A stretch of DNA of 64,000 bases. Source: Ilumatobacteraceae bacterium. Lineage in GTDB: Bacteria; Actinomycetota; Acidimicrobiia; Acidimicrobiales; Ilumatobacteraceae. Location: positions 297 to 64,296 of the forward strand of contig JBIOUO010000009.1 of the NCBI GenBank assembly GCA_044867195.1, read 5' to 3'. This document shows positions 5,761 through 45,075 of this stretch, piece by piece. Under the pieces are notes generated by a model that worked only from the letters and a program-made list of their open reading frames with translations, had not been told where the DNA came from and made no database searches. Numbering within the stretch: position 1 is the first letter of the stretch; each line of letters begins with the position of its first letter. Position numbers and translations under genes: made by a program.

Positions 5761-6192
5761 CTACAACGTGACCAGGTTGGCTGGGGTTGCCGCGTGCACC
5801 GCCGAGACGGGGACCGATTGATCGAAGGTGACGAAGCGCCCGCCGTGATGGGTCGCCAGCGCGAGCAAGTAGGCGTCCGTCACCTGGCGGGGGCCATGGA
5901 GGTGGGTGCGGTCGATGGCGCTCGTGTCGAGGAGGCTCGTGTCGCACGTCCAGTAGACGTGATGTGGCTCAGTGCAGGCCTGATCCAGGAGGTCGATGGC
6001 TACCGTCGGCGAGACGGGACTCGGATAGCGGGGCTGGCTGATCACGCGTACGAAACCGTTCTGCGTGATCGCACACGACGCCCAACCGGAGCCAACCTCC
6101 ATGTCGATCCACGCCCGGGCGCGCTCGTGCTCGATGTGGTCACTGTCCAGAAGCGCGATCAGCACATTGACGTCGAGGAGTGCGCGGCTCAC
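5761..6192 (-). CDS. vapC: PIN-domain toxin (VapC family)
   Basis: 143 aa starting LLDVNVLIAL (first PIN Asp), with later acidic residues. GTG start overlaps the upstream antitoxin stop (GTGA at 6189-6192). Confidence 0.85.
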   Translation of the reverse strand: MSRALLDVNVLIALLDSDHIEHERARAWIDMEVGSGWASCAITQNGFVRVISQPRYPSPVSPTVAIDLLDQACTEPHHVYWTCDTSLLDTSAIDRTHLHGPRQVTDAYLLALATHHGGRFVTFDQSVPVSAVHAATPANLVTL

Positions 6193-6428
6193 TCGGGTTC
6201 GTCCTCGCGGAGCTGGTCGATGAGCGTGTTGGTGACGGGGGGGCCTCGATGAGGCAGCGGGTGGAACCCGTGTAGTCCTCCGCGCTTGCGGGTGGCCGGG
6301 CGGCGGGGGCCTGTCAGCGCTTGGCGCGCGAGGTCCGACAGCACCTCACCTGCGGTCCGGTTCTCGCGTCGCGCCCGCTCCTTCACCGCGAGCAGTACGT
6401 CGTCATCGAGCGTCAACGTTGTGCGCAC
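6189..6428 (-). CDS. vapB: type II antitoxin (VapB family)
   Basis: 79 aa. The MRTTLTLDDDVLLAVKERA N-terminus is typical of VapB antitoxins. Translationally coupled to the PIN gene. Confidence 0.8.
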   Translation of the reverse strand: MRTTLTLDDDVLLAVKERARRENRTAGEVLSDLARQALTGPRRPATRKRGGLHGFHPLPHRGPPVTNTLIDQLREDEPE

Positions 6429-6468
6429 GCATCTGATGCTACTGCATCACCGGCGGGCGGGCCGAGAG

Positions 6469-7601: not shown

Positions 7602-8378
7602 GTGCGTTGGGGGTTGTCGCTGGCGCTGGCGGACGAGCTCGCCGAGCCGGCGGTCGTCGCCGACATCGCACGGGTCGCCGAAGAGTCCGGCTGGGACGGC
7701 GTGTTCGTCTCGGACCACCTCTGGAACTGGACCGGCGCGCCATTCGCTGATCCGTGGGTGACGCTTGCCGCGGCGGCGATGACCACCGACCGCGTTCGCC
7801 TCGGGCCGATGGTGGCGGCATTGCCACGCCGCCGCGCACAGCTCGTGGCCCAGGCGGCGACGACGCTCGACCGGTTGTCCGGCGGGCGGGTCGTGCTGTC
7901 GCTCGGGCTCGGTGTCGACAGCTACGGCGAGTACTCGGTGTTCGACGAGCCGGCTGCCGATGACCGGTCGCGGGCGGCGGCGCTCGACGCCGGCATCGAG
8001 CTACTCGTCCCAATGCTCGAGGGCGGGCCGGTCGCCGCGCTCGGCGGGCGCCAGACGACGGCAGCCGGCGTACAACGTCCGCGCTGTCCGATCTGGATCG
8101 CCGGCGTCGCGCCGCACCGCGCCGGGCCGCGGCGCGTCGCCCGTCACAGCCTGGAAGGCCTGGCACTCGTCGGTGGGGGAGTGTGGACGCCGCAGCGTGT
8201 CACCGATTCGCTCGCGGCCGGCGGGCTGGCGCCCGGCTCGATCGACGTCGCTCTCGTCGGCGGCACCCATCCCGACCCGGCGGGGTTGGCCGCGGCGGGC
8301 GCGACGTGGTGTGTCCCTGAGATCGAGCCAGGGGCGACAGCCGCCGATGCGCTCAGGCTGTCGGCGACTACGCCGTGA
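7602..8378 (+). CDS. LLM-class (luciferase-like) F420-dependent oxidoreductase
   Basis: 258 aa with a GTG start. Contains WGLSL...AEESGWDGVFVSDHL and RVVLSLGLG segments typical of LLM-class enzymes. Confidence 0.8.
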   Translation: MRWGLSLALADELAEPAVVADIARVAEESGWDGVFVSDHLWNWTGAPFADPWVTLAAAAMTTDRVRLGPMVAALPRRRAQLVAQAATTLDRLSGGRVVLSLGLGVDSYGEYSVFDEPAADDRSRAAALDAGIELLVPMLEGGPVAALGGRQTTAAGVQRPRCPIWIAGVAPHRAGPRRVARHSLEGLALVGGGVWTPQRVTDSLAAGGLAPGSIDVALVGGTHPDPAGLAAAGATWCVPEIEPGATAADALRLSATTP

Positions 8379-8835
8379 TCGCCTGATACGGCTTCGGCCG
8401 CCGGTCGCGCAGCGTGAACGCGTCGCCCGACACGCCGTCGCGGCGCAGGGCGGCCAGCCGGTCCAGCGCCTCCTCGACGCTCGGGACATGGCCCGCAGGC
8501 ACCCACCAGCACACCAGGTACGCGTCGTCCATCCGCGCGAACCACTCCCGCCGCCGGCGCAGGAACGCGGCGTGGCCGGTCCGAAACACAAACTCGTGGA
8601 GGGCGTCGGGCGACTCCCATACCGAGAGGTTGATGATCACCAGCGGGTCCTCGTCGGCGCGCACGTAGCTCGAGGACTGCCCGGCGTCGTCGGTCAGCCG
8701 CCACACGAACCCGGGCGACGATTCAGCGAGCGCGTTGACGTCGTCGAGCGAGGCGACGAACTTCGCCGTGTCAGGGTGGTCGAGCGGCTGGCGGAGGCGG
8801 GCGACGTTGAGCTGGGCGAGCCGCCAGTTGGGCAT
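8368..8835 (-). CDS. DUF3291-like protein (intact copy)
   Basis: 155 aa: MPNWRLAQLNVARLRQPLDHP...GFVWRL...VINLSVWES. A decayed second copy lies at about 18190-18531. Confidence 0.8.
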   Translation of the reverse strand: MPNWRLAQLNVARLRQPLDHPDTAKFVASLDDVNALAESSPGFVWRLTDDAGQSSSYVRADEDPLVIINLSVWESPDALHEFVFRTGHAAFLRRRREWFARMDDAYLVCWWVPAGHVPSVEEALDRLAALRRDGVSGDAFTLRDRRPKPYQAITA

Positions 8836-9194
8836 CCCGGCACGCTACGGGCCGGTGGCACCGGTTGGCCCGCCGGTACCGTGGGGGCGCGCCGGCGGCG
8901 CGGTTGCCGGACCCGAGCAGTGCCGTGAGCGGCTCGGCGACGGGTCCACCCGCTCGACTCGAGCGCGACGAGGCGTCCCCGGGTGGATCTCGGTACTTTG
9001 CCACCAGGCGGTGTCATCGCGGAGCACCGGCCGCGATGCCCTGTGGCCGCACCTCGTCGTAAAGCCCGCGCCTCCACGCCGTTGCTCCGTCCTCCGCTCG
9101 AGATGTGGTCGTATCGGAGTCGCGGGCCGCGTCACAGCGAACACAGGCAAGGCGAGCGAGCTTGCGCCCGAGCGTCGGCTGCCAGCAGTATGGG

Positions 9195-10619
9195 GTGGTG
9201 GTCGCTGCCGGCTCGCCGCTCCGGCTCCATCCGGATCGGTTGTTGCCGCCAGATCCGGCCGAGCGGGCGATCGCCCGGAGGTTGTACTTGGCGGTGCGGG
9301 ATCTGCCGGTGATCTCGCCGCACGGTCATGTCGACGCGCGGTTGCTCGTCGACGACCAGCCGTTCGCCGATCCGGCCACGTTGTTCGTGACGCCGGACCA
9401 CTACGTGACGCGGCTGCTGCACGCCGACGGCGTCGGCCTGGACACCCTTGGTGTCGGTCAGGTCGCGCTGTCGGAGAGTGCTGCCCGCGCGGTGTGGCGT
9501 CAGCTGTGCAGCCGCTGGCATGTCTTTCGGGGCACGCCGGTGCGCTTCTGGTTGGAGGCCGAGCTGGCGGACATCTTCGGCGTCACGGTGCGCCCGTCGG
9601 CGGAGACGGCCGACCTGATCTACGACCAGATCGCCGCTCGCCTGGTCGAGGACGCGTACCGGCCGCGCGCGCTGTACGAGCGGTTCCGCATCAGCGTCCT
9701 GGCGACCACGAACGACCCGTGCGACGATCTCGCCGCCCATGCCGCCCTGGCCGCCGACCCCAGTTGGACGGGCCGCGTGATCCCGACGTTCCGCCCCGAC
9801 AGTTACCTCGAACCTGCTCGTGACGGCTGGGTCGATGACGTCGCCCGTCTGGCCAAGGCGGCTGACGTCGACACCGGCGAATACGGCGGGTACATCGAGG
9901 CGCTCGAAGCGCGGCGCCGGCACTTCATCAACCACGGCGCCACGTCCACTGACCACAGCCACGACGACGCCGGCACCGAGCCGCTCGACGCTGCGGAGGC
10001 GGCGCGCATCTACCGGGCGGCGCTGCAGGGCGACGCCACCTCGGAGCAGACGGTCGCCTTTCGCCGCCACATGCTGTTCGAGATGGCGAGGATGGCCTGC
10101 GACGACGGCCTGGTGATGACGCTGCACCCAGCTGTGCGTCGCAACCACCACTCACCCACGGCCGCCCGCTACGGCGCCGACATCGGCTGCGACATCCCGA
10201 CCCGGATCGAGCTCACCGACGCCCTGCGCCCCCTGCTCGACCGGTTCGGTACCCATCCCGGTTTCCATCTGGTCGTGTTCACGATGGACGAGACGGTGTG
10301 GTCGCGCGAGCTGGCGCCGCTGGCCGGGTTCTACCCGTCGGTGTTCGTGGGCGTGCCGTGGTGGTTCCTGGACGCGCCCGACGCGATCCGCCGGTTCCGC
10401 GCCGCCGTCTCCGAGACGGCCGGGTTCTCCCGCACGTCGGGCTTCGTCGACGACACCCGTGCCTTCTGCTCGATCCCCGCCCGTCACGACCTCTCGCGAC
10501 GCGTCGACGCTGGCATCCTGGCCCGGCTGGTGGTCGAGCACCGCCTCGACGAGGACGAGGCGCTCGACACCTGTGTCAACCTGGTGACGGACCAGCCGAC
10601 CACGGTGTTCAAGCTGTGA
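9195..10619 (+). CDS. uxaC: glucuronate (uronate) isomerase
   Basis: ORF 9105..10619. ARRLYLAVRDLPVISPHGHVD and TPDHYVTRLLHADGV match the UxaC N-terminus. Start is uncertain: GTG at 9195/9198 or ATG at 9105. Confidence 0.9.
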   Translation: MVVAAGSPLRLHPDRLLPPDPAERAIARRLYLAVRDLPVISPHGHVDARLLVDDQPFADPATLFVTPDHYVTRLLHADGVGLDTLGVGQVALSESAARAVWRQLCSRWHVFRGTPVRFWLEAELADIFGVTVRPSAETADLIYDQIAARLVEDAYRPRALYERFRISVLATTNDPCDDLAAHAALAADPSWTGRVIPTFRPDSYLEPARDGWVDDVARLAKAADVDTGEYGGYIEALEARRRHFINHGATSTDHSHDDAGTEPLDAAEAARIYRAALQGDATSEQTVAFRRHMLFEMARMACDDGLVMTLHPAVRRNHHSPTAARYGADIGCDIPTRIELTDALRPLLDRFGTHPGFHLVVFTMDETVWSRELAPLAGFYPSVFVGVPWWFLDAPDAIRRFRAAVSETAGFSRTSGFVDDTRAFCSIPARHDLSRRVDAGILARLVVEHRLDEDEALDTCVNLVTDQPTTVFKL

Positions 10620-12007
10620 CCGCACGGCCGTTGTCGCGGGCCGCCGGCGACGGCCGCCCTGCGGCGCCGGTGCGCCTGGTGCACCTCGGCCTGGGCAACT
10701 TCTTCCGCGCTCACCAGGCGTGGTACACCGACCAAGCACCGGACGCCGAGGAATGGGGCTATGCCGCCTTCACCGGCGTCGGGGTCGCCCCGGCCGATCG
10801 GCTGGGCGCTCAGGACGGGTTGTACACCCTCGTCTCACGAGGCGCGGCGAGCGACAGCTTCGAGGTGATCAGCTCCCTCTCCCAAGTGCACGGCTCCGGC
10901 GAGCACGACGCCTGGCTCGACTGCTTCACCGCCCCCGAGCTGGCCACGGTCACGATCACGGTCACCGAGGCCGGGTATCTCCGCCGCGCCGACGGCAGCC
11001 TCGACACCGACCGGCCCGAGATCCAGGCCGACGTCGAGACGCTGCGGGGCGACCGGTCGGCGCCGGTCCACACCGCCCCGGCCCGGCTAGTGGCCGGGCT
11101 GGACGCGCGGCGGCGCGCCGAGGCCGGCCCGCTGGCGCTGGTGCCGTGCGACAACGTCGCTGGCAACGGCGGCATCGTCGAGCGTGTCGTGCACGACCTG
11201 GCCGATCTCGTCGACCCCGCTCTCGCCGCCTGGCTGGCCGGCTCGGTCTCGGTGGTGACGACCGCGGTGGACCGGATCACGCCGCGGGCCGTCGACGACG
11301 ACGCCCGCGCGGTCGCCGAGGCCACGGGGCGAGCGGACACCAGCCCGGTGGTGACCGAGCCGTTCACGGAGTGGGTGCTCAGCGGGACGTTCCCCGCCGG
11401 GCGGCCGCGCTGGCACGACGTGGGGGCTCGCTTCACCGACGACATCGTCCCGTTCGAGCAGCGCAAGCTGTGGCTGCTCAACGGGGCGCACTCGCTGCTC
11501 GCTTACGCCGGATCGATCAGAGGCCACCACACGGTGGCCGACGCGGTCGGCGACGACACATGCCGGTCGTGGGTGCAGCAGTGGTGGGCAGAGGCGTCGT
11601 CCCACCTCGACCAACCCGGCGCGGAGGTCGCCGCCTACCAGCAGGCGCTGCTCGAGCGCTTCGCCAACACCCGCATCCGCCACCTGCTGGCCCAGATCGC
11701 CGCCGACGGCTCGCAGAAGCTGCCGATCCGGGTCTTGCCGGTGCTGCGGGCGGAACGGGCGGCGGGCCGTCCGGCCACCGCCGCCACCCGCATCGTGGCC
11801 GCCTGGCTCTGTCACCTGCGCGGAATGGGAGCAGCGATCAGCGACGCCCGCTCCGACGCCGTTGCGCCACTCGCCACAGGCCCGATCGCCGACGCGGTGC
11901 ACAACGTTCTCGCCTTCCTCGACCCCGGGCTCGTGGACGACGCCAACGTGGTGGCCGACACGATCAGCCACAGCGACGAGCTCGCCCGCCAGTGGAAGGA
12001 TCGGTGA
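10616..12007 (+). CDS. uxuB: mannitol-dehydrogenase-family oxidoreductase (fructuronate reductase / D-mannonate oxidoreductase-like)
   Basis: In-frame part of ORF 10298..12007, starting at GTG 10616, which overlaps the uxaC TGA. LVHLGLGNFFRAHQAWYT is the UxuB/mannitol-2-dehydrogenase-type N-terminal motif. Length 463 aa. Confidence 0.8.
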   Translation: MTARPLSRAAGDGRPAAPVRLVHLGLGNFFRAHQAWYTDQAPDAEEWGYAAFTGVGVAPADRLGAQDGLYTLVSRGAASDSFEVISSLSQVHGSGEHDAWLDCFTAPELATVTITVTEAGYLRRADGSLDTDRPEIQADVETLRGDRSAPVHTAPARLVAGLDARRRAEAGPLALVPCDNVAGNGGIVERVVHDLADLVDPALAAWLAGSVSVVTTAVDRITPRAVDDDARAVAEATGRADTSPVVTEPFTEWVLSGTFPAGRPRWHDVGARFTDDIVPFEQRKLWLLNGAHSLLAYAGSIRGHHTVADAVGDDTCRSWVQQWWAEASSHLDQPGAEVAAYQQALLERFANTRIRHLLAQIAADGSQKLPIRVLPVLRAERAAGRPATAATRIVAAWLCHLRGMGAAISDARSDAVAPLATGPIADAVHNVLAFLDPGLVDDANVVADTISHSDELARQWKDR

Positions 12008-13605
12008 TGCCACCCTCACCGGTGGTCATCGGCCTCGACGTCGGCACCACTGGCGTCAAGGCGGCAGCGTTCCGAACCGGATCGTCGGACCACCACGTGG
12101 CCATCCGCGAGTACCCGCTGCTCGAACCGGCGCCCGGTCAGCACGTGCAGGACCCCGACACCGTCCTCGCCGCTTCAATCGGCGCCTTGGCCGACTGCCT
12201 CGCCGGCACCGGCGATGCACCGGTGGCTGCCATCTCGACCAGCACAGCCATGCACGGGCTCGTGGCCATTGACCGCGACCACAGACCGCTCACGCCGCTG
12301 GTGACGTGGGCCGACGGTCGTGCCCGCGAGGAGGCTCGCTCCCTTCGCCGATCAGGTCTGGCCGCCGAGCTGCACACCGCCACGGGTGTTCCCGTCCACC
12401 CGATGACGCCGCTCACCAAGCTGATGTGGTTCGCCCGCCACGACCCCGCGACGTGGGCGGCGGCCCGGTGGTGGATCGGGCTCAAGGACTATGTGCTGCT
12501 CGGGCTCACCGGAACACTGGTCACCGAGCTGTCCTCGGCATCCGGCACCGGGCTCCTCGACCTGTCCACTCGCACGTGGAGCCCACTCGCACTCGACGTC
12601 TGCCGCATGTCCGCCGACCGCCTCCCCCAGATCCTGCCCACCACGGCGACGCTGGGTCTGGCGGCCGAGCCGGCTCGCCAGCTCGGCCTGGCCGCCGGCA
12701 CGCCGGTGGTGGTCGGCGCCGGCGACGGCCCGCTGGGCAATCTCGGTGTCGGCGCGATGGCACCAAGGGTCGCCGGCCTCTCGCTGGGCACGAGCGGCGC
12801 CGTGCGCATCGCGGTCGGCCCCCCTCGGGTCGACACCGACGGCGCGCTGTTTTGCTATGCCCTGACGGAATCCGAGTGGGTGCTCGGCGGCGCGATCAGC
12901 AATGGTGGCAGCGTATTGCGCTGGGTCGGGGACGCCCTGCTCCCCGATGTCGTCGCCGCTGCGGCCGCGTCCGGCGTCAACGCGGATGACGCCGTGCTCG
13001 ACCTGGCGGGCGGCGTCGCGCCCGGGAGTGACGGCTTGGTGATGCTCCCCTACCTGCTCCCCGAGCGCGCCCCGCTGTGGGATCCCGACCTGCCCGGCGC
13101 CTACATCGGGTTGCACAGCCGCCACACCCGAGCGCACATGGTGCGCGCCGCGGTGGAAGGCGTGTGTCTGCAGCTGCGGCTGATCGTCGATGCGCTCGAT
13201 GCCGTCGAGCCGGTGACGTCAGTGCGGGCCACCGGCGGCGCGTTCCGGGCGCCACTGTGGCGCGAACTCGTGGCGGCGACGATCGGGCGCCCGCTCGTGG
13301 TGGTCGAGGGCTCGGAGGGCACGGCGCTGGGCGCGGCCGCACTCGGCGTCGTCGCCCTAGGGTGGGCACCAACGCCGGTCGATGCGGTGGCTCAGGTCGG
13401 CGACCCTGACGCCGCCGAGCCACGCCCAGTCGACCCCGACCCCGAGGCCGTCGCCGTCTATGACATCCTGCGGGCGTCGCTGCCGGCACTGGTGGCCGAC
13501 CTCGCATCGGTGGCCCCGGCGTTCGGCCGCCGCGAACCCGCCGTCGCCCAACGCGATGGAGGAGGGCGATGCGCGTCGGCACCGAGCGCCACCGACCCGT
13601 CGTGA
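12007..13605 (+). CDS. FGGY-family carbohydrate kinase, gluconokinase-like
   Basis: C-terminal 532 codons of ORF 10720..13605. The ATG at 12007 overlaps the uxuB stop. Contains VVIGLDVGTTGVKAA, EYPLLEPAPGQHVQDPD and VVVGAGDGPLGNLG. The upstream 429 codons of the ORF are Arg/Gly/Pro-rich and overlap uxuB in another frame. Confidence 0.85.
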   Translation: MPPSPVVIGLDVGTTGVKAAAFRTGSSDHHVAIREYPLLEPAPGQHVQDPDTVLAASIGALADCLAGTGDAPVAAISTSTAMHGLVAIDRDHRPLTPLVTWADGRAREEARSLRRSGLAAELHTATGVPVHPMTPLTKLMWFARHDPATWAAARWWIGLKDYVLLGLTGTLVTELSSASGTGLLDLSTRTWSPLALDVCRMSADRLPQILPTTATLGLAAEPARQLGLAAGTPVVVGAGDGPLGNLGVGAMAPRVAGLSLGTSGAVRIAVGPPRVDTDGALFCYALTESEWVLGGAISNGGSVLRWVGDALLPDVVAAAAASGVNADDAVLDLAGGVAPGSDGLVMLPYLLPERAPLWDPDLPGAYIGLHSRHTRAHMVRAAVEGVCLQLRLIVDALDAVEPVTSVRATGGAFRAPLWRELVAATIGRPLVVVEGSEGTALGAAALGVVALGWAPTPVDAVAQVGDPDAAEPRPVDPDPEAVAVYDILRASLPALVADLASVAPAFGRREPAVAQRDGGGRCASAPSATDPS

Positions 13606-13788
13606 CGTGGCGACCACGTCGGTGGTCGGGTCGAGGAGCCATTGCACCTGCCGTTCGTACATCATCGTCTGGCAGTGGCGTGCCGCCTCGTCGATGTCGA
13701 GGTCGGCGCGGGCCAGCCCTTGCTCGACGGCCGCCGCGATCATGGTTCGGATCGGTCCGATCACCATGCGACTCGGGCGCTCCGTCAC
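13597..13788 (-). pseudogene. possible remnant of a TetR-family regulator (C-terminal ligand-domain fragment only)
   Basis: First ~64 codons of ORF 13357..13788 read VIGPIRTMIAAAVEQGLARADLDIDEAARHCQTMMYERQVQWLLDP, which is TetR_C-like. No HTH-coding part exists upstream, because uidA starts at 13859. The rest of the ORF overlaps the kinase gene. Confidence 0.3.
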
Positions 13789-13858
13789 CGGAGCGGGCGA
13801 TGACGCGCTGCTGGTTCAGAGGCCGGGTCCCGGCATTCAGTAGACCAAGGAGGTCCCC

Positions 13859-15649
13859 ATGCTGCGCCCACAGGACACGCCCACTCGCGACCGGAAGCGC
13901 CTCGACGGCATCTGGTCGTTTCGGTTCGACGAGGACGACGCCGGGATCGCCCAAGGGTGGCACACCGCGCCGCTCGACGGAGCGCGATCAATGGCAGTTC
14001 CGGCGTCGTACAACGACATCTTCACAGAACTCGCCTCGCGCGACTACGTCGGCGCGGTGTGGTACCAGACCGAGGCGTTCGTCCCCCGGGGTTGGGCCGG
14101 CGAGCGCGTCGTGTTGCACTTCGAGTCCGCCACCCACAGCGCGATCGTGTTCGTCGGAGACGTCGAGGCGGCGCGTCATCGGGGTGGCTACCTTCCGTTC
14201 GAAGCCGACATCACCGAGCACGTCACGCCGGGCGCGCCGATCCGGATCACCGTCCGGATCGACAACACGCTCACGTGGCAGACGATCCCGCCCGGCGTCG
14301 TCACCGTGTCCGAATCGGGGGAGCGTGCGCAGCGCTATTTCCACGACTTCTTCAACTACGCCGGCATCCACCGATCGATCTGGCTGACAGCCCGCCCCGA
14401 GCAGGCGATCAACGACATCACCATCGTCACCGATCTCGATGGCACCACGGGTTTCGTCGATTACACGATCGCGACCATCGGCGGCCCTGCCGATGTCGGG
14501 GTGACGGTCCGTGGGGCTGACGGTACCGTCGTCGCCGGCGCGACCGGTGCGACCGGTCGCCTCATGATCGAGGACGTGGTGCCGTGGCAAGTCGGGCGCG
14601 GCCATCTGTACGACCTCGAGGTGCGCCTGGCCGAAGGTGACGCGCTGATCGATGAGTACCACGTCAACGTCGGAGTTCGCACCGTCGCCATCGACGGGGC
14701 ACGACTCCTCGTCAACGGCGAGCCCGTCTACCTGCGCGGGTTCGGGATGCACGAGGATCACATCACGCTCGGCAAGGGCCACAACGCCGCGATGTGGCTC
14801 CGCGATGTCGAGTGCTTGAAGTGGATCGGGGCCAACTCGTTCCGCACCTCCCACTACCCGTACAGCGAGGACGTGCTCGACCTCGCCGACCGCGAGGGCC
14901 TCCTCGTGATCGACGAGACGCCAGCGGTCGGCATGAACACCGGCCTTGCCGGCGGGATCTTCTCGACGGAGAGCTACCCGACCTTCTCCGCCGACACGAT
15001 CAACGACGAGACGCAGGCGATCCACGCCGACGTCATTCGCGACCTCATCGCCCGCGACAAGAACCATCCATCGGTGGTGATCTGGTCGATCGCCAACGAG
15101 CCGGAGTCGCACACCGAGGCGTCCGAGGAGTACTTCCGCCCGCTGCTCGACATCGCCCGCGCCTCGGACCCGCAGCACCGCCCGGTCGGGTTCGTGAACG
15201 TGATGCTCGCACCGCACGGGGCGTGCCGGGTGACGCCACTGTGCGATCTCGTGATGATCAACCGCTACTGGGGCTGGTACGTGCAAACCGGCGACCTCGC
15301 GTCGGCGACGGTTGCCGCCCGTGAGGAGCTCGCCGGATGGGCGGGCGAGGGCAAGCCGATCATCGTCACCGAATACGGAGCCGACACCGAGCCCGGGATG
15401 CACCGGCTTCCCGCCGACCCGTGGTCGGAGGAATATCAGGTCGACTACCTCGACGCGATGCACGCCGTCTTCGACGAGTTCGCCGAAGTCATCGGCGAGC
15501 ACATCTGGAACTTCGCCGACTTTGCCACGCGTTCGGGGATCATGCGTGTCGGCGGAAACAAGAAGGGCGTGTTCACGCGGGACCGTCAACCGAAGATGTC
15601 CGCCCACCATGTCCGTCGCCGCTGGCGGGCGGCGCCGCGCAGCGGCTGA
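13859..15649 (+). CDS. uidA: GH2 beta-glucuronidase
   Basis: 596 aa. The N-terminus MLRPQDTPTRDRKRLDGIWSFRFD...AVPASYNDIF...VWYQTEAFVPRGWAGERVVL is collinear with E. coli UidA. Contains WSIANEP and TEYGAD catalytic regions. Confidence 0.92.
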   Translation: MLRPQDTPTRDRKRLDGIWSFRFDEDDAGIAQGWHTAPLDGARSMAVPASYNDIFTELASRDYVGAVWYQTEAFVPRGWAGERVVLHFESATHSAIVFVGDVEAARHRGGYLPFEADITEHVTPGAPIRITVRIDNTLTWQTIPPGVVTVSESGERAQRYFHDFFNYAGIHRSIWLTARPEQAINDITIVTDLDGTTGFVDYTIATIGGPADVGVTVRGADGTVVAGATGATGRLMIEDVVPWQVGRGHLYDLEVRLAEGDALIDEYHVNVGVRTVAIDGARLLVNGEPVYLRGFGMHEDHITLGKGHNAAMWLRDVECLKWIGANSFRTSHYPYSEDVLDLADREGLLVIDETPAVGMNTGLAGGIFSTESYPTFSADTINDETQAIHADVIRDLIARDKNHPSVVIWSIANEPESHTEASEEYFRPLLDIARASDPQHRPVGFVNVMLAPHGACRVTPLCDLVMINRYWGWYVQTGDLASATVAAREELAGWAGEGKPIIVTEYGADTEPGMHRLPADPWSEEYQVDYLDAMHAVFDEFAEVIGEHIWNFADFATRSGIMRVGGNKKGVFTRDRQPKMSAHHVRRRWRAAPRSG

Positions 15650-15799
15650 GGTCGACACCGGCCGGCGGCGCATCGATGTCGACCCGGTTCAGAGCCGTTG
15701 ACACTGGCCGGCCCAGGACGTGGTCGTTTGCACTGGCCGGTGAACGTCGAGTCGTTCTGCCGCGCTGACCGACCGTGCACCCGGCGATCGGCGACCGCT

Positions 15800-15945
15800 G
15801 GGTGGGACCACGACCACGAGACAGGGTGCGCGCCGCTCGAGTTGCTGACTCACGGACCCGAGCAGCATGCTGTCCAAGGCGCCGCGGCCGCGACCCCGCG
15901 ACCAACGAGATAGGCGACCGTGGTGGCATCGCAGCAGGAGCGACG
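15800..15945 (-). pseudogene. possible universal-stress-protein (USP) remnant, frameshifted
   Basis: Frame of ORF 15689..16162 gives GRGRGALDSMLLGSVSQQLERRAPCLVVVVP, a USP C-terminal signature. The adjacent frame (ORF 15573..15977) gives ISLVAGSRPRR just upstream. Together these look like ...LVAGSRGRGAL..LLGSVS...PVVVV split by a 1-nt indel. There is too little room for a full USP before the larA-like gene. Confidence 0.3.
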
Positions 15946-16149
15946 GCCGGACTGGCGGAGACCGAGGCACGGCGCACGGCGCTGGCCTCGCTGGTGCCGA
16001 TGGGCTCTCCACGATCAGCCGGCTGCCCCGCGGCGTTCCGTGGCAGCTACTCACTGGCATGCTGGCGGAAGCGGGCAGTGTCCCGATCGAGGCCAGGACT
16101 AGGGTGCCGTTGGTCATCGCCTGGCCCCGCCGGGCGTTGGCGGAGGGTG

Positions 16150-17517
16150 ATGCCGATGGCAAGAATCACGAGTCCTGAGGCCCCAGCGGTCCCCGTCGCC
16201 CATATCGGCGGTGCTGGCGTGGTCCTGGGCGACGACCAGGTGCGGGCCTTCGTCCTCGCCCAGCTCGAGGCGGTCGCGCTCGATGGCCGCAGTGTGTGCG
16301 TGCTCGTGCCCGACGCGACGCGTACCTGCCCGCTGCCGCTGCTGGTGTCCGCGATCCACGACGCGCTGCGCGGTCGCGTGTCCAAGCTCACGGTGCTGGT
16401 GGCGCTGGGAACCCACGCCGCGATGGACCAAGCGGCTCTCGCCGAACTCCTGGGGTATCGCCCCGGAGCGCTGGCCGAGCACTATCCGGGCATGGCGGTG
16501 CGCAACCACGAATGGTGGGACCACGGCACGTTTGCCGCCGTCGGCACGATCCCCGCCGAGCGCATCGCCGAGCTGTCCGAGGGGATGCTGCGCCAGAGCC
16601 TGGACGTCCGCATCAATCGGGCCGTCCTGGACCACGACGTCACGCTGATCGTCGGTCCCGTGTTCCCGCACGAGGTGGTGGGGTTCTCCGGCGGCAACAA
16701 GTACCTGTTCCCCGGGATCGGGGGCCGGGAGGTGATCGACGTCTCCCACTGGTTGGGCGCGCTGATCACGAGCGCCGAGATCATCGGCGTGCGCGGCGTC
16801 ACCCCGGTTCGCGCACTCATCGACGACGCCGCCGCGCTCGTGCCGGGAGAGCGGCTGGCGCTGTGCGTGGTGACCCGCAGCGGCACCCAGTTCGTGGGCG
16901 AAGACTGGAACATGGAGGAGCAGCAGCCGGACCCGCACGCGGCCACCCACGGGCACCAGGTCGCCCTGCACGCCGCCACGTTCGGCGAACCGCGGGCGGC
17001 CTGGGCCGCCGCGGCTGAGATTTCAGCGCAGACCCATGTCCGCTATCTCGAGCGGCCGGTGCGCCGGGTCCTCTCCCTCGTGCCCTCCCGGTACGACGAC
17101 ATCTGGACCGGTGCCAAGGGCTTCTACAAGGTCGAACCGGTTGTTGCCGACGGCGGCCAAGTCGTCCTCCACGCCCCGCACATCCGCCAGATCAGCGCCA
17201 TGCACCCTCAGATCGCGGCCATCGGCTACCACTGCCGCGACTACTTCGTCAAGCAATGGGATCGCTTCAGGGACGTCCCCTGGGGCGACCTCGCCCACTC
17301 CACGCACCTGCGCGGCGCCGGCACCTATGACCAGAGCACCGGTCGGGAACACGACCGGGTGACGGTCACCCTCGCCACCGCGATCCCGGAAGCGGAGGTG
17401 AGGGCGGTCAACCTCGACTACCTCGACCCAGCGTCTGTCGATCCGGAGGGCTGGGCCCGGGACCCGGACACGATGGTGGTTCCCAACGCCGGAGAGGATC
17501 TCTACCGCTTGCGCTGA
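16150..17517 (+). CDS. LarA-family (lactate racemase N-terminal domain / DUF2088) protein, putative Ni-pincer-dependent 2-hydroxyacid racemase/epimerase
   Basis: In-frame part of ORF 15775..17517, from ATG 16150 (or 16156, MARITSPE). Contains VCVLVPDATR, LVALGTHAAM and FPHEVVGFSGGNKYLFPGIGG. Its 455-aa length is similar to LarA. Confidence 0.85.
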   Translation: MPMARITSPEAPAVPVAHIGGAGVVLGDDQVRAFVLAQLEAVALDGRSVCVLVPDATRTCPLPLLVSAIHDALRGRVSKLTVLVALGTHAAMDQAALAELLGYRPGALAEHYPGMAVRNHEWWDHGTFAAVGTIPAERIAELSEGMLRQSLDVRINRAVLDHDVTLIVGPVFPHEVVGFSGGNKYLFPGIGGREVIDVSHWLGALITSAEIIGVRGVTPVRALIDDAAALVPGERLALCVVTRSGTQFVGEDWNMEEQQPDPHAATHGHQVALHAATFGEPRAAWAAAAEISAQTHVRYLERPVRRVLSLVPSRYDDIWTGAKGFYKVEPVVADGGQVVLHAPHIRQISAMHPQIAAIGYHCRDYFVKQWDRFRDVPWGDLAHSTHLRGAGTYDQSTGREHDRVTVTLATAIPEAEVRAVNLDYLDPASVDPEGWARDPDTMVVPNAGEDLYRLR

Positions 17518-17769
17518 TGATCGGCGGCCGTCTGCGAGGGATGGGGCTGCACGCCGGGGGGACCAATGACGACCGAGCCAGCGCCGGCGCAGGACCAGAT
17601 CTGCTCGATGAGAATCGATCCAGCGGATCCACGCCGAGTTGTTCCAGCACGGCGTCGCCGTCGCCGAACGCCCGATCCGCACGCCGTCGACCCGGCAGTG
17701 GTTGGCCGGCGACGGGGTCATCTTGACTCCCGCCGCTCCCAACGGATCGCCGTCAGGTACGCGATGATC

Positions 17770-17808
17770 GACGCCACCGACGCCACCGACGCCACCGACG
17801 CCACCGAC
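17770..17808. repeat. 9-bp tandem repeat (GACGCCACC) x 4.3
   Basis: Read directly from ...atc GACGCCACC GACGCCACC GACGCCACC GACGCCACC GAC acg. It lies in a stretch with no convincing gene. Confidence 0.9.
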
Positions 17809-18189
17809 ACGGCCGCACTGCCTTTGAAGGAGCACCTGCAACGTTTCGCGATGCGTCAACGGGCGTGCCGCGCGCTGGTCGACGACGTTCTGCCAGCGAC
17901 GACGGCCCAAATCGCTCACCTCAACATCACCGGTCTCTACTGCGGTGGGCTCCGGTCAGCGCCTTGCCCGCGAGCGTTCACGCTGGAGGCCTCATAACAC
18001 TGACGCGACCGCGCTTCCCACCGGGGGGCCATCCAGTTCCGATTGTTGTCACCGACGGCACGACGTTCGTCGCGGACCGAGGAACGCAGAGCGCCCCCAC
18101 GCCGCCATCCGGCCCATAGCCCATCTGCACCCGCCCTCGGGCTGGATCCCTCGTCCTCACCGACGAGCACCGCGCCGGATTCGAAAGGT

Positions 18190-18531
18190 GTCCCGTACGG
18201 CTTCCGGCCGTCAAGGGCCGCCGAACAATCCCGGCTCGTGGCTGTCGCCGCAGGAACGCGGTGCGGCCGGTCCGGAACACAGTCATGGAGCGCGTCGGGC
18301 GACTCCCACACGGCGAGGTTGATGATCACCAGCGGGTCCTCGTCGGCGCGCACGTAGCTCGAGGACTGCCCGGCGTCGTCGGTCAGCCACCACACGAAAC
18401 CGGGCGAGGACTCAGCGAGCGCGTTGACCGCGTCGAGCGAGGCGACGAACTCCGCCATGTCCGGGTGGTCGAGCGGCTGGCGGAGGCGGGCGACGTTGAG
18501 CTCGGCGAGGTGCCAGTCGGGCATCCCGGCA
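18190..18531 (-). pseudogene. DUF3291 paralogue, decayed (frameshift plus internal deletion)
   Basis: MPDWHLAELNVARLRQPLDHPDMAEFVASLDAVNALAESSPGFVWWLTDDAGQSSSYVRADEDPLVIINLAVWESPDALHD matches the 8368..8835 protein. The frame is then lost: FRTGRTAFLRR continues in the frame of ORF 17978..18286. A ...GRKPYG... tail corresponds to ...RRPKPYQ... of the intact copy. Confidence 0.75.
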
Positions 18532-18579
18532 CGCGACGGGCCGGTCGCCGCCCGCGGGTGCGCCGATACCGTGGCGGCG

Positions 18580-19587
18580 ATGACGCCCGAGGCCGCTCTT
18601 GACCGCGTGCTGCATTGCCTCGATCGTGCCCATGTGCCCGGCTTTCGAGCCAGGGCGTTCCAGCGGGCGCGCGACGTGGTGCGCGCGACCGATCCGTCCG
18701 AGATCGCCGAGCGGGCAGCCGCGGGCACGCTGACCAAGCTCGACGGGATCGGTGACTCCAGCGCCAAGGTCATCACCGAGGCGCTGGCGGGCGAGGTGCC
18801 GCACTACCTCGTGCACCTCGAGCAGACGACGCAGGTGCCGATCACGCCCGGCGGCCAGCGCTACCGCGACGCCCTGCGTGGCGACTGCCACCTTCATTCG
18901 ACGTGGAGCGACGGTGGCGCCCAGATCGAGGAGATGGCGGCCACGGCGATGGCGCTCGGGCACGAGTACATGGTGCTCACCGACCACTCGCCGCGCCTCA
19001 CGATCGCTCACGGCCTCAACCGGGAGCGGCTGGAGCGTCAACTCGTCGACATCGAGCAGCTCAACGCCGGCTTCGACGGCTTCCGCATCCTGACCGGCAT
19101 GGAGGTCGACATCCTCGAGGACGGCACGCTCGACCTCGACGATGATCTGCTGGAGCGGCTCGACGTCGTCGTCGCCAGCGTCCACTCCAAGCTGCGCATG
19201 GCCCGCGAACCGATGACCGAGCGGATGGTGCTCGCCGTGGCCAACCCGCACGTCGACATCCTCGGCCACTGCACCGGGCGGTTGATCGGCAAGCGTCCCG
19301 AGTCCACGTTCGACGCCGACTACGTGTTCGCCGCGTGCAAGCAGTTCGACACTGCAGTCGAGATCAACTGCCGACCCGAGCGGCTCGACCCACCGCGCGA
19401 GCTGCTCGATCTCGCCGTCGACTATGGCTGCTGGTTCTCGATCGACACGGACGCCCACGCGACCGGCCAGCTCGAGTGGCAGCCGCATGGATGCGATCGG
19501 GCCGCCGAGCGCGACGTGCCACTCGACCGTGTCATCAACACAATGTCTGCCGACGATCTGTTGGCATGGACGGCCTCGTCAGGCTGA
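18580..19587 (+). CDS. PHP-domain protein with N-terminal helix-hairpin-helix region (PolX C-terminal-like phosphoesterase)
   Basis: In-frame part of ORF 18424..19587, from ATG 18580 (MTPEAALDRVLHCL...). Contains LTKLDGIGDSSAKVI (HhH), then GDCHLHSTWSDG, MVLTDHSP, VASVHS and FSIDTDAH, which are PHP metal-binding motifs. Confidence 0.85.
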   Translation: MTPEAALDRVLHCLDRAHVPGFRARAFQRARDVVRATDPSEIAERAAAGTLTKLDGIGDSSAKVITEALAGEVPHYLVHLEQTTQVPITPGGQRYRDALRGDCHLHSTWSDGGAQIEEMAATAMALGHEYMVLTDHSPRLTIAHGLNRERLERQLVDIEQLNAGFDGFRILTGMEVDILEDGTLDLDDDLLERLDVVVASVHSKLRMAREPMTERMVLAVANPHVDILGHCTGRLIGKRPESTFDADYVFAACKQFDTAVEINCRPERLDPPRELLDLAVDYGCWFSIDTDAHATGQLEWQPHGCDRAAERDVPLDRVINTMSADDLLAWTASSG

Positions 19588-27502: not shown

Positions 27503-27587
27503 GCCCGGGTGGCGGAACTGGCAGACGCGGGGGGCTTAAACCCCTCTGACCGCAAGGTCGTGTGGGTTCGAACCCCACCCCGGGCAC
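27503..27587 (+). tRNA. tRNA-Leu (anticodon UAA)
   Basis: Manual fold. Acceptor GCCCGGG/CCCGGGC, D arm GCG..CGC, anticodon stem GGGGG/CCCUC with loop CUUAAAC (anticodon UAA). Long variable arm (UGACCGCAAGGUCGUG), T arm UGGGG UUCGAAC CCCCA, discriminator A. No encoded CCA. Confidence 0.9.
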
Positions 27588-43547: not shown

Positions 43548-44276
43548 TCAGCCCGGGCGCGAACCGAACGAGGTGAGATCGAGCGTGCCGGCGATGACGG
43601 ACTGGGCGACATCGGCCAGCCTCGCGTTGTGGCTGCGGGCATACGTCCGCAACTGCCGAAACGCCTGGTCCACCCCGAGGCCTCGCCGCTCGGCGATGAC
43701 GCCCTTCGCCTGCTCGATCACGATCCGGCTGTGCAACGCCTGACTGAGCTGGTCGTTGAGGACATTGGTCTCGAGCACGGCTCGGTGTTGGAGGATGGCG
43801 ATCGTGGCCACATCGGCGAGCGCCTGGGCGATGGCGACGTCGTCGGTCGTCAGCGATCCGGTCTCGGTGCGGAACAGGTTGAGCGCGCCGATGACCTGCC
43901 CGCGCAGCCGCATCGGGATCGCGTCGGCAGCGCGAAACCCGGCGCCGAGCGCGACGGAGGCGAACCGTGGCCATCGACTGTCGTCGGCGGACAGGTCGTG
44001 GTTGACGACCGGCTGACCGCTGTTGAAGCAGTCCAGGCAGGGGCCCTCCTGGGACTGCACTTCGAACAGCTCGACGACGCGCATCGCCTCGCTCGACGAG
44101 GTCATCACTCGCAGCTCGCCATCTGGCGAGGCGAGCATGATCCCCGCGGCAGCGATGTCGAGCACGCCAACGCAGCGATCTGACAGCGTCGTCAGCAGGT
44201 CGATGACGTCGAAGTCCTCGACGAGCGTGTCGGCGAGCTCGACCATCGTGCGGACGAGGACTGCTTCACGTGTCAT
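43548..44276 (-). CDS. GAF and ANTAR domain-containing protein
   Basis: 242 aa. GAF region with EGPCLDCF, and the C-terminus IEQAKGVIAERRGLGVDQAFRQLRTYARSHNARLADVAQSVI is an ANTAR domain. Confidence 0.9.
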   Translation of the reverse strand: MTREAVLVRTMVELADTLVEDFDVIDLLTTLSDRCVGVLDIAAAGIMLASPDGELRVMTSSSEAMRVVELFEVQSQEGPCLDCFNSGQPVVNHDLSADDSRWPRFASVALGAGFRAADAIPMRLRGQVIGALNLFRTETGSLTTDDVAIAQALADVATIAILQHRAVLETNVLNDQLSQALHSRIVIEQAKGVIAERRGLGVDQAFRQLRTYARSHNARLADVAQSVIAGTLDLTSFGSRPG

Positions 44277-44352: not shown

Positions 44353-45075
44353 TCATTGCGAGGTGCTTCCGCCGTCACGGTCGCCGAACCGCAGGCGGCG
44401 GGCGATGACGTCCCGGGAGACGTCGACGACCGAGAGGTCGTGGCGGAAGGCGTGGGCGCGCAGCCTGACGAGCGCCTCGTCCACCGACGTGCCGAGCTGA
44501 ACCGAGACCATCCCGGCGGCCTGGTGCACGACGAAGCGGAAGTTGGCGCCCGCCTCCAGATCGGCGCCGATCTGGCCGGGGATGGCGCCGGCCTGCGTCG
44601 CGACGATGGCCCGCGCGGCGATGCTGGCGACGATCACGGCGTCCGCGTGCTGGTCGTCGCTCATCGGTCCCGGCCGATCGCGGTACAGGTTGAGGGCGCC
44701 GACGCCGACTGCGCCGACCTCGACGGGGAACCCGAACACCGCGCGTGCACCAGCATCGACGGCTGCGGCCGCGAACGCCGACCACCGGGTGACCGCCGGT
44801 GTGGCGAGATCAGGTTCGGCGACCGGACGGTGTTGGCGATGGGCGTCGATGCACGGACCCTCGCCGAGTGTGAACTGCAGCTCCTCGATCAACGCGCTGG
44901 TCGCGTCGGTCGTGCACACCGAGCCGCGCGGCAGATCGTCAGCCATCAGCATGATCCCGGCGCCCGTCATCTCCGTCAACTCGGCGCAGACGACGCAGAG
45001 CCGTGTGGTGGACGGCTGGTGCGCGCCGGCGGCGTGGATCCGGGCGAGGATCCGCAACAGACGATCGTCAGGCAT
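44353..45075 (-). CDS. GAF and ANTAR domain-containing protein (second copy)
   Basis: 240 aa. Contains EGPCIDAH in the GAF part and VHQAAGMVSVQLGTSVDEALVRLRAHAFRHDLSVVDVSRDVI (ANTAR). Confidence 0.9.
   Translation of the reverse strand: MPDDRLLRILARIHAAGAHQPSTTRLCVVCAELTEMTGAGIMLMADDLPRGSVCTTDATSALIEELQFTLGEGPCIDAHRQHRPVAEPDLATPAVTRWSAFAAAAVDAGARAVFGFPVEVGAVGVGALNLYRDRPGPMSDDQHADAVIVASIAARAIVATQAGAIPGQIGADLEAGANFRFVVHQAAGMVSVQLGTSVDEALVRLRAHAFRHDLSVVDVSRDVIARRLRFGDRDGGSTSQ

Follow-up and report, generated by a model that had tools for sequence, protein, structure and literature searches.

According to PMC7583248 and PMC6978723, Rodionova et al. proposed in 2012 from gene context that in Thermotoga mannonate is converted to gluconate by GntE and gluconate is phosphorylated by GntK, so that the isomerase route of hexuronate breakdown would be joined to the pentose phosphate pathway. 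Here, we describe a five-gene cluster from an Ilumatobacteraceae bacterium in which a homolog of GntE and a gluconokinase-like enzyme are encoded together with proteins for the use of glucuronides. The cluster lies in a stretch of 64,000 nucleotides (assembly GCA_044867195.1, contig JBIOUO010000009.1, positions 297 to 64,296), hereafter the window. It is a new example of the kind of route proposed in 2012, whose enzyme family was characterized in 2020, and not a new pathway.

GntE2 of Thermotoga maritima was characterized by Desguin et al. (2020) as a nickel-pincer nucleotide (NPN)-dependent D-gluconate 2-epimerase and, assayed in the direction from mannonate to gluconate, has a Km of 17 mM and a kcat of 197 per second (PMC7583248). 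GntE1 of Corynebacterium glutamicum (WP_004567503.1), which belongs to group 19 of the LarA homologs (LarAH), also converts mannonate to gluconate with NPN in vitro, with a Km of 120 mM and a kcat of 59 per second (PMC7583248). The high Km led the authors to suggest that a related acid sugar is the native substrate of group 19 (PMC7583248), and a follow-up study in 2024 added a eukaryotic GntE. A route with the two steps in the other order was reported by Valk et al. (2020), who found that in extracts of Lactobacillus suebicus mannonate is phosphorylated (apparent Km of about 0.4 mM) and that 6-phosphomannonate is then epimerized to 6-phosphogluconate (PMC6978723). The phosphorylation is thought to be due to gluconokinase homologs, which apparently prefer mannonate (PMC6978723). 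The literature searched yielded no work on this route in vivo for Actinomycetota.

In the route that we propose for the window, UidA would free D-glucuronate from beta-glucuronides, UxaC would convert D-glucuronate to D-fructuronate and a UxuB-like reductase would form D-mannonate from D-fructuronate. Next, the group-19 LarA homolog, of the GntE1 type, would invert D-mannonate at C2 to give D-gluconate, passing through a transient 2-keto intermediate with the lysine-tethered NPN cofactor acting as a hydride shuttle. Finally, the FGGY-family kinase would phosphorylate D-gluconate to 6-phosphogluconate, which would enter the pentose phosphate pathway via Gnd. The route would stand in for the branch formed by mannonate dehydratase (UxuA), 2-keto-3-deoxygluconate (KDG) kinase (KdgK) and 2-keto-3-deoxy-6-phosphogluconate (KDPG) aldolase (Eda). 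We put the probability that the cluster is such an actinobacterial GntE shunt for glucuronide catabolism, with the epimerase acting before the kinase, at roughly 0.58; taking both orders of these two steps together, it is highly likely that the cluster delivers glucuronate carbon to 6-phosphogluconate. The same sequence of reactions had been suggested in a first-pass annotation made from the letters of the window. Its end point at 6-phosphogluconate is well supported by the group-19 placement, the biochemistry of GntE1 and GntE2 and the closeness of the kinase to gluconokinases, whereas the order of epimerase and kinase is favored rather than established.

Comparison with described hexuronate routes

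The window resembles the Thermotoga GntE2/GntK/Gnd system in that genes of the hexuronate isomerase route are accompanied by those for a hexonate 2-epimerase of the LarA family and for a gluconokinase-like FGGY kinase, and the logic of leading mannonate through 6-phosphogluconate to the pentose phosphate pathway is shared. All NPN-binding and catalytic residues are common to GntE2 and the window GntE, and the latter matches the GntE2 structure (4NAR) over its full length. However, the two proteins are 33% identical, the window protein belongs to group 19 and not to group 20, and its pocket has EV in place of ES, A-K in place of G-K and a G in place of N348. In addition, the window reductase is a long-chain enzyme of COG0246, whereas that of Thermotoga is a short-chain dehydrogenase/reductase, and the window cluster includes uidA, whereas gnd and a GntR regulator are missing from the window.

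The window GntE falls into one phylogenetic group with C. glutamicum GntE1 and the other proteins of group 19, and its signature logo is identical to theirs. Table S1 of PMC7583248, which covers three genes on either side of 21 group-19 genes, lists LarE (33%), LarB (33%), LacI (24%), glucuronate isomerase (24%), a COG0246 dehydrogenase (19%), LarC (19%), the luciferase family (14%) and beta-glucuronidase (14%) as their context. The glucuronate isomerase (COG1904), the COG0246 enzyme, the beta-glucuronidase (COG3250) and a luciferase-family oxidoreductase are all present in the window. In contrast, an FGGY kinase, which forms part of the operon here and occurs in 12 of the 80 related loci surveyed below, is unlisted in the published group-19 context; the COG1070 sugar kinases of Table S1 are given for group 20 (86%) and not for group 19 (PMC7583248). 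Also, larBCE are not adjacent to the window gntE, and the identity to the assayed GntE1 is 48.5%. The first-pass annotation had taken the gene arrangement to be uncharacterized, a view that does not hold in light of the Thermotoga GntE-GntK proposal of 2012, as cited in the later papers, and of the uronate context of group 19 in Table S1.

The L. suebicus route likewise leads from the upper isomerase pathway to 6-phosphogluconate via one phosphorylation and one C2 epimerization, and bypasses UxuA-KdgK-Eda. There, the action of the kinase followed by that of the epimerase has been shown in extracts, whereas for the window the genes are known and the order is a predicted one, and the downstream pathway is the phosphoketolase pathway in L. 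suebicus, whereas it would be the pentose phosphate pathway for the window. Lastly, the Ashwell pathway with UidA, as in E. coli, has its first three steps, catalyzed by UidA, UxaC and a UxuB-family reductase, in common with the window. In contrast to the Ashwell pathway, the cluster encodes an NPN-dependent epimerase and an FGGY kinase, and no mannonate dehydratase (UxuA), PfkB-type KDG kinase or KDPG aldolase was found in the 64-kb window when another 52 distinct called open reading frames (ORFs) were scanned against Pfam, which bears out what the first-pass annotation had stated for these three enzymes.

The genes of the cluster

The cluster occupies positions 9195–17517, with all five genes on the plus strand in the order uxaC, UxuB-like reductase gene, FGGY kinase gene, uidA and LarA-family gene (Table 1). 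Gene calls were scored by third-position GC; the window has a G+C content of about 70%, at which raw ORF lists are crowded with spurious frames. All five cluster ORFs are full length and intact with a high third-position GC, and each of the genes has NCBIfam or Pfam matches at the place and on the strand given in the first-pass annotation. The gene ends given there also stood, while two starts did not fare as well: that of uxaC at 9195 is uncertain, and that of the LarA-family gene is discussed below. With 530.6 bits, the uxaC product exceeds the cutoff (387) of NF002794, the NCBIfam equivalog for glucuronate isomerase, and it matches Pfam UxaC with 232 bits. Homologs match the version starting at 9195 only from residue 22, and then through to the end, and gene calls of metagenome-assembled genomes (MAGs) place the start at about 9288, with which conserved residues would be lost. 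UidA reaches 839.7 bits on the beta-glucuronidase equivalog NF007538 of NCBIfam (cutoff 544) and has the N-terminal, middle and TIM-barrel domains of glycoside hydrolase family 2 (GH2) in Pfam.

The first three genes, which the first-pass annotation had read as translationally coupled, do overlap at their stop and start codons. The stop codon of uxaC and the start of the reductase gene overlap in GTGA at 10616–10619, and the reductase stop (12005–12007) and the kinase ATG (12007–12009) overlap within GTGATG at 12004–12009. The start codons at 10616 and 12007 are supported because the alignment of homologs begins at residue 1 of the reductase (50 loci) and at residue 2–3 of the kinase (12 loci).

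The reductase has Mannitol_dh (117 bits) and Mannitol_dh_C (102.6 bits) domains in Pfam, and among PDB structures it is matched best by YdfI of E. coli (4IM7) and by mannitol 2-dehydrogenase. On the NCBIfam tagaturonate reductase model it scores 148 bits, lower than on the fructuronate reductase and DalD models. The UxuB label is given because the gene overlaps uxaC and because its homologs are linked to gntE in 50 of 80 related loci; on these grounds, it probably encodes a fructuronate reductase yielding D-mannonate.

The kinase has FGGY_N (177.3 bits) and FGGY_C (131 bits) domains in Pfam. The best of the FGGY models is TIGR01314 (gntK_FGGY) with 365.9 bits, compared to 280 bits for XylB and 143 bits for GlpK, and the top PDB match is a 'gluconate kinase' (3GBT/3LL3) with 289 bits, compared to 171 bits for xylulokinase. 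The suggestion of the first-pass annotation that the kinase is closer to gluconokinases than to xylulo- or glycerol kinases is upheld by these scores, although the equivalog cutoff of 648.55 bits is not reached. Judged by these models, the kinase is gluconokinase-like but not a certified member of the gluconokinase family, and gluconate would be its predicted substrate.

Placement of the LarA-family protein in LarAH group 19

For the LarA-family gene, a start at ATG 16156, giving a protein of 453 residues, is more likely than the first-pass start at 16150 judging from recorded proteins: the exact 16156 product is recorded in three NCBI MAGs, whereas that of the 16150 start is not recorded. The protein matches Pfam Lar_N with 76.3 bits (cutoff 23.3), and its top match in the PDB is 4NAR (T. 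maritima TM0442, that is GntE2 or LarAH20), with an E value of 3.9e-63 over query residues 46–452. Structures of lactate and malate racemases are matched only with E values of 1e-6 to 1e-2 and over the cofactor-binding segment alone. The LarA fold of the window protein is settled by sequence identity to 4NAR.

Reference sequences and the group-19 logo for the alignment and the tree were taken from Dataset S2 of PMC7583248. In the neighbor-joining tree, the window GntE is nested within LarAH group 19, with identities of 62–71% to actinobacterial group-19 proteins, 48.5% to C. glutamicum GntE1, 33% to group 20 (GntE2) and roughly 22% to both group 18 and group 22. The catalytic residues D53, H87, H172 and K321 (LarA D72, H108, H174 and K298) are invariant in the alignment with the group-19 and group-20 references. 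The cofactor-binding residues R56, K182 and H198 correspond to R41, K164 and H180 of GntE2 and to R75, K184 and H200 of LarA (184 and 200 at an offset of 2), of which K184 is the covalent tether and H200 a nickel ligand in LarA. The group-19 logo is matched at D53, R56, H87, H172, E173, V174, K182, H198, W317, T318, A320, K321 and G377. The pocket signature of group 19 consists of a loop E-V after the catalytic histidine, W..T-A-K in helix 11 and G...A-S-T-H-R in helix 14, and is present in the window protein as H172-E173-V174, W317-T318-G319-A320-K321, G377 and A380-H381-S382-T383-H384. The GFSGGNK segment reported by the first-pass annotation is found at residues 176–182, and its LarA-superfamily assignment stands: the protein groups with neither the lactate nor the malate racemases but inside group 19, and its catalytic histidines are kept. 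By tree and residues alike, the window protein is a group-19 LarAH of the GntE1 type, and its predicted substrate in vivo would be D-mannonate.

Other members of the superfamily were considered and rejected. An assignment as lactate racemase (LarA, group 1) is contradicted by a score of 58.4 bits on NCBIfam Ni_dep_LarA (cutoff 460), by the replacement of the bulky Phe-Phe loop after the catalytic histidine with E173-V174 and by the tree. The malate racemases LarAH5 and LarAH6 are likewise excluded by the tree and by their NCBIfam equivalogs, on which the protein reaches 77.3 bits against a cutoff of 500 and 63.1 bits against one of 462. The best NCBIfam match is the putative hexonate epimerase of LarAH group 18 (NF052594), yet it amounts to 160 bits against a cutoff of 500, at 22% identity. 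No group-19 or group-20 model is among the NCBIfam matches of the protein.

Conserved linkage and a shared putative operator in related loci

Relatives were collected by scanning one genome per GTDB species with the group-19 alignment, which gave at least 588 confirmed relatives among 600 candidate stretches. Neighborhoods were counted in the best 80 of these at least 588 relatives, with flanks of 10 kb (1.45 Mb). Genes were called, proteins were clustered and cluster representatives were checked against Pfam and NCBIfam, and the counts for UxuB, UxaC, Lar and FGGY proteins were confirmed by tblastn. The window GntE is 54–71% identical to the proteins of the 80 loci (numbers with L below refer to single loci), and all named loci are from Actinomycetota. 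The commonest neighbor of gntE is a UxuB-like reductase gene, present in 50 of the 80 loci and often without uxaC, which occurs in 44. At least one of LarB, LarC and LarE is encoded nearby in 30 loci (NCBIfam equivalogs above cutoff), an ortholog of the window FGGY kinase in 12, UidA in 11 and 6-phosphogluconate dehydrogenase in five. A P-loop gluconokinase of the GntK/IdnK type (TIGR01313, 171.9 bits, cutoff 113.75) is found in four loci, and a KDG-kinase-like PfkB gene, located 3' of uxuB, in three. Neither a UxuA nor a KDPG aldolase family is among the 22 scanned neighbor clusters, each of which covers at least three loci; several smaller clusters that also recur, and the singletons, were not scanned. 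Within 10 kb of gntE, 50 of the 80 loci have a UxuB-like gene and 44 have uxaC, so that the arrangement in the window is not a chance juxtaposition.

The relatives usually have gntE and a uxaC-uxuB(-FGGY) operon in divergent orientation, and larE-larB-larC often follow gntE. The window, in which all genes are co-directional, has a rearranged version of this divergent layout, to which L068 comes nearest. Recurrence of the arrangement in related genomes, a point raised by the first-pass annotation, was borne out: epimerase, kinase, uxaC and uxuB occur together in 12 of the 80 loci, and all five window genes in L042 and in two cultured strains, Planosporangium sp. 12N6 (L005) and Modestobacter sp. 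VKM Ac-2985 (L020). The kinase orthologs in these 12 loci are 51–66% identical to the window kinase, and uxaC and uxuB are present in every one of them. As in the window, the kinase gene lies directly 3' of the UxuB-like gene in a uxaC-uxuB operon in 11 of the 12 loci, the gene order of L005 not having been tabulated. In the four loci with a GntK/IdnK-type gluconokinase, this non-homologous enzyme occupies the place of the FGGY kinase, which therefore suggests that gluconate is the intermediate that is phosphorylated.

A 16-bp palindrome, TGGCAACCGGTTGCCA, was found by k-mer enrichment in the uxaC-gntE spacers of the relatives. In the 1.45 Mb of related loci, 35 sites with at most two mismatches are present, compared to an expectation of less than one site under uniform base composition, by our own estimate. 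Most of the sites lie 70–165 bp 5' of uxaC and gntE, upstream of uidA or just downstream of gntE near LacI genes, and loci with sites include L014, L020, L024, L029, L042, L043, L056, L065 and L074. TGGCAACCGGTTGCCA looks like the operator of the LacI-family regulator that is encoded beside many group-19 gntE genes. The palindrome is shared by gntE, uxaC and uidA, and gntE therefore belongs to one LacI-type regulon with hexuronate and glucuronide genes in the relatives, in which co-regulation is conserved along with linkage.

The surroundings of gntE differ in some relatives. For instance, gntE is accompanied by IolG-like Gfo/Idh/MocA oxidoreductases, xylose-isomerase-like TIM-barrel proteins and ABC permeases in L025, L071 and L075, and in another context, that of Kribbella, an FAD/BBE-type oxidase is encoded and uxaC and uxuB are lacking. 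Besides the three loci named, those with such divergent contexts are L037, L047, L049, L052, L055, L060 and L061. The substrates used may accordingly differ among the members of group 19.

Order of the last two steps and alternative substrates

An epimerase that acts before the kinase is favored because GntE1 and GntE2 turn over free mannonate and because the window kinase resembles gluconokinases. It is also favored because in some loci the FGGY kinase gives way to a bona fide gluconokinase from an unrelated family and because most loci have no dedicated kinase, as would be expected if the product is ordinary gluconate. A kinase gene is present in only about 20% of the 80 loci, which in our view fits gluconate as a product that a housekeeping kinase can use.

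Several observations weigh against the shunt in this form. First, the Km of GntE1 for D-mannonate is 120 mM, and those who assayed the enzyme question whether mannonate is what it uses natively (PMC7583248). Second, mannonate was not epimerized in L. suebicus extracts without ATP, and its phosphorylation came first (PMC6978723). Third, the kinase stays well under the equivalog cutoff of gntK_FGGY, and the reductase scores almost the same on the models for fructuronate reductase (PRK15037, 241.5 bits, cutoff 603) and for DalD, a D-arabinitol dehydrogenase (242.6 bits, cutoff 600). Fourth, the Pfam scans described above detected no LarB, LarC or LarE and no 6-phosphogluconate dehydrogenase (6PGD domain; gnd) in the window, and no sugar transporter or regulator adjoining the cluster; the larBCE genes would be located elsewhere in the genome. 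Lastly, uidA and gntE are 506 bp apart, TGGCAACCGGTTGCCA is absent from the window, where a single site with three mismatches at 56776 is at chance level, and no motif common to the three spacers 5' of uxaC, uidA and gntE exceeds shuffled controls. The perfect palindromes of these three spacers are unrelated to each other, and no LacI gene was found in the window by the same scans. A scan of positions 8300–18600 for sigma-70 promoters and terminators gave nothing that exceeded the shuffle expectation, and an Rfam scan of the whole window revealed no riboswitch in the cluster spacers, the sole match being a tRNA at 27503–27586.

As the main alternative, it is possible, though unlikely, that the two steps occur in the order described for L. 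suebicus, with the FGGY enzyme acting as a D-mannonate kinase that forms 6-phospho-D-mannonate and the group-19 homolog as a 6-phosphomannonate 2-epimerase that forms 6-phosphogluconate. Both activities are found in this order in L. suebicus extracts, and gluconokinase homologs and a GntE homolog are expressed (PMC6978723). Such an order would explain a Km for free mannonate as unphysiological as that of GntE1, and it agrees with a window kinase that is only gluconokinase-like and with the place of its gene directly after uxuB, the place expected for an enzyme that acts on mannonate. However, unphosphorylated mannonate is turned over by both GntE1 (59 per second) and GntE2 (197 per second), and a dedicated mannonate kinase would be needed, whereas in the majority of group-19 loci that have uxaC and uxuB a kinase gene is missing within 10 kb. 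Moreover, the gluconokinase found in four loci is above the cutoff of the GntK/IdnK family, and E. coli GntK reportedly does not use mannonate (cited in PMC6978723). Extended to group-19 LarA homologs like that of the window and to the co-transcribed FGGY enzyme, the assignment as the 6-phospho-D-mannonate 2-epimerase and D-mannonate kinase of the L. suebicus route is somewhat more doubtful still. If true, it would account for the 120 mM Km of GntE1 and provide genes for two orphan activities across many Actinomycetota.

We consider it improbable that the epimerase acts on an aldarate or another hexonate, in which case uxaC and uxuB would feed a UxuA-KdgK-Eda branch encoded elsewhere and the kinase would serve another substrate. 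Desguin et al. raised such a doubt from the Km and from the differences between the logos of groups 19 and 20, and suggested D-glucarate or D-mannarate (PMC7583248). The quite different contexts of L025, L071, L075 and Kribbella, and the KDG-kinase-like PfkB gene after uxuB in three loci, would also be in line with this. On the other hand, a UxuB-like reductase is the commonest and the strongest partner of gntE (50 of 80 loci), which ties the epimerase to the product of the reductase, and gnd and two unrelated types of gluconokinase recur near gntE. In addition, gntE, uxaC and uidA have an operator in common in the relatives, and UxuA and KDPG aldolase families are missing from the 22 neighbor clusters scanned. 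Conversion of mannonate into gluconate, with phosphorylation as the next step, is accordingly the reading that we retain.

Flanking repeats and other features of the window

The whole cluster is bracketed by two copies of a direct repeat of about 310 bp, which are 9.69 kb apart (Table 1). The left copy takes in the first 95 codons of an intact DUF3291 gene (8368–8835, minus strand) together with roughly 30 bp upstream of it, and at the right copy a partial DUF3291 match (profile positions 1–82 of 139) is located in an ORF at 17937–18776 on the minus strand. This pattern suggests to us a Campbell-type (single-crossover) insertion of an acquired block, and the block could also be lost via recombination between the repeats. 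The flanking genes are unrelated to the cluster and encode a luciferase-like oxidoreductase, DUF3291, a PHP-domain protein, an APH-family kinase and a glutathione peroxidase. That the cluster is a horizontally gained and poorly functional or non-functional remnant, in a host unable to make the cofactor or import the substrate, is very improbable: the repeats with their duplicated DUF3291 5' fragment, flanking genes that lie near gntE in none of the 80 relatives, and the missing operator, lar genes, adjoining transporter and regulator could be read in this way, yet the five ORFs are intact with high third-position GC and conserved active-site residues, at least three MAG assemblies carry the same block and encode identical proteins in it, and lar genes are unlinked from gntE in 50 of the 80 relatives as well.

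Table 1. Coordinates of the cluster genes and of the flanking direct repeats in the window.
Feature	Position	Strand	Basis and remarks
uxaC, glucuronate isomerase	9195..10619	+	NCBIfam and Pfam UxaC; start uncertain, about 9195–9240
UxuB-like long-chain mannitol-dehydrogenase-family reductase, probable fructuronate reductase	10616..12007	+	Pfam, linkage; GTG start
FGGY-family hexonate kinase, gluconokinase-like (possibly mannonate kinase)	12007..13605	+	Pfam FGGY_N, FGGY_C
uidA, GH2 beta-glucuronidase	13859..15649	+	NCBIfam and GH2 domains; 253-bp spacer 5'
gntE, LarA-superfamily group 19 (GntE1-type), predicted NPN-dependent hexonate 2-epimerase	16156..17517	+	506-bp spacer 5'
Left copy of direct repeat (about 310 bp)	8550..8865		Repeat search and alignment
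Right copy of direct repeat (about 310 bp)	18241..18555		92% identical to left copy; truncated DUF3291 5' fragment

A tandem 9-bp repeat, CGACGCCAC, is present in about five copies at 17769–17815, between gntE and the right-hand repeat, and lies inside a small ORF of the MAG annotations (about 17764–17979). On the minus strand, an ORF at 13357–13815 with a third-position GC of 0.86 lies partly over the 3' end of the kinase gene and partly over the spacer between this gene and uidA. The ORF was considered as a remnant of a regulator gene and rejected as such, as it matches no Pfam family; it may be the remnant of an earlier gene or may reflect codon-position bias seen on the opposite strand. 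A GH1-family glycosidase is encoded at 627–1877 on the minus strand, 7 kb upstream of the five genes. Members of its protein cluster are encoded beside uxuB or uidA in L017 and L040, and the enzyme may be part of the same repertoire for glycoside use.

Further away, an ORF of 866 codons (54624–57224, minus strand) has an FMO-like/Pyr_redox_3 N-terminal part fused to a C-terminal Abhydrolase_3 domain, and is adjoined by genes for a cytochrome P450 and a luciferase-like oxidoreductase. Two adjacent paralogous genes for GAF-ANTAR regulators are located at 43548–44246 and 44353–45057 on the minus strand. A PIN-domain toxin gene (5761–6192, minus strand) has no called antitoxin partner, and the 276-bp gap at 6193–6468 could hold a small antitoxin ORF.

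Implications

The value of the finding is confirmatory, as no new kind of system is involved. The window contributes a clean case, from an actinobacterium, of a route from glucuronides to 6-phosphogluconate without mannonate dehydratase, KDG kinase and KDPG aldolase, and one that would rely on the rare nickel-pincer nucleotide cofactor. The conversion of hexuronates to ribulose-5-phosphate is redox-neutral and of interest for engineering the use of pectin and hexuronates (PMC6978723). For the family, the comparative data lend more weight to the physiological role assigned to LarAH group 19 through the linkage of gntE to UxuB-like genes, uxaC, larBCE, two unrelated types of gluconokinase and gnd, and through a putative LacI-type operator that gntE shares with hexuronate genes.

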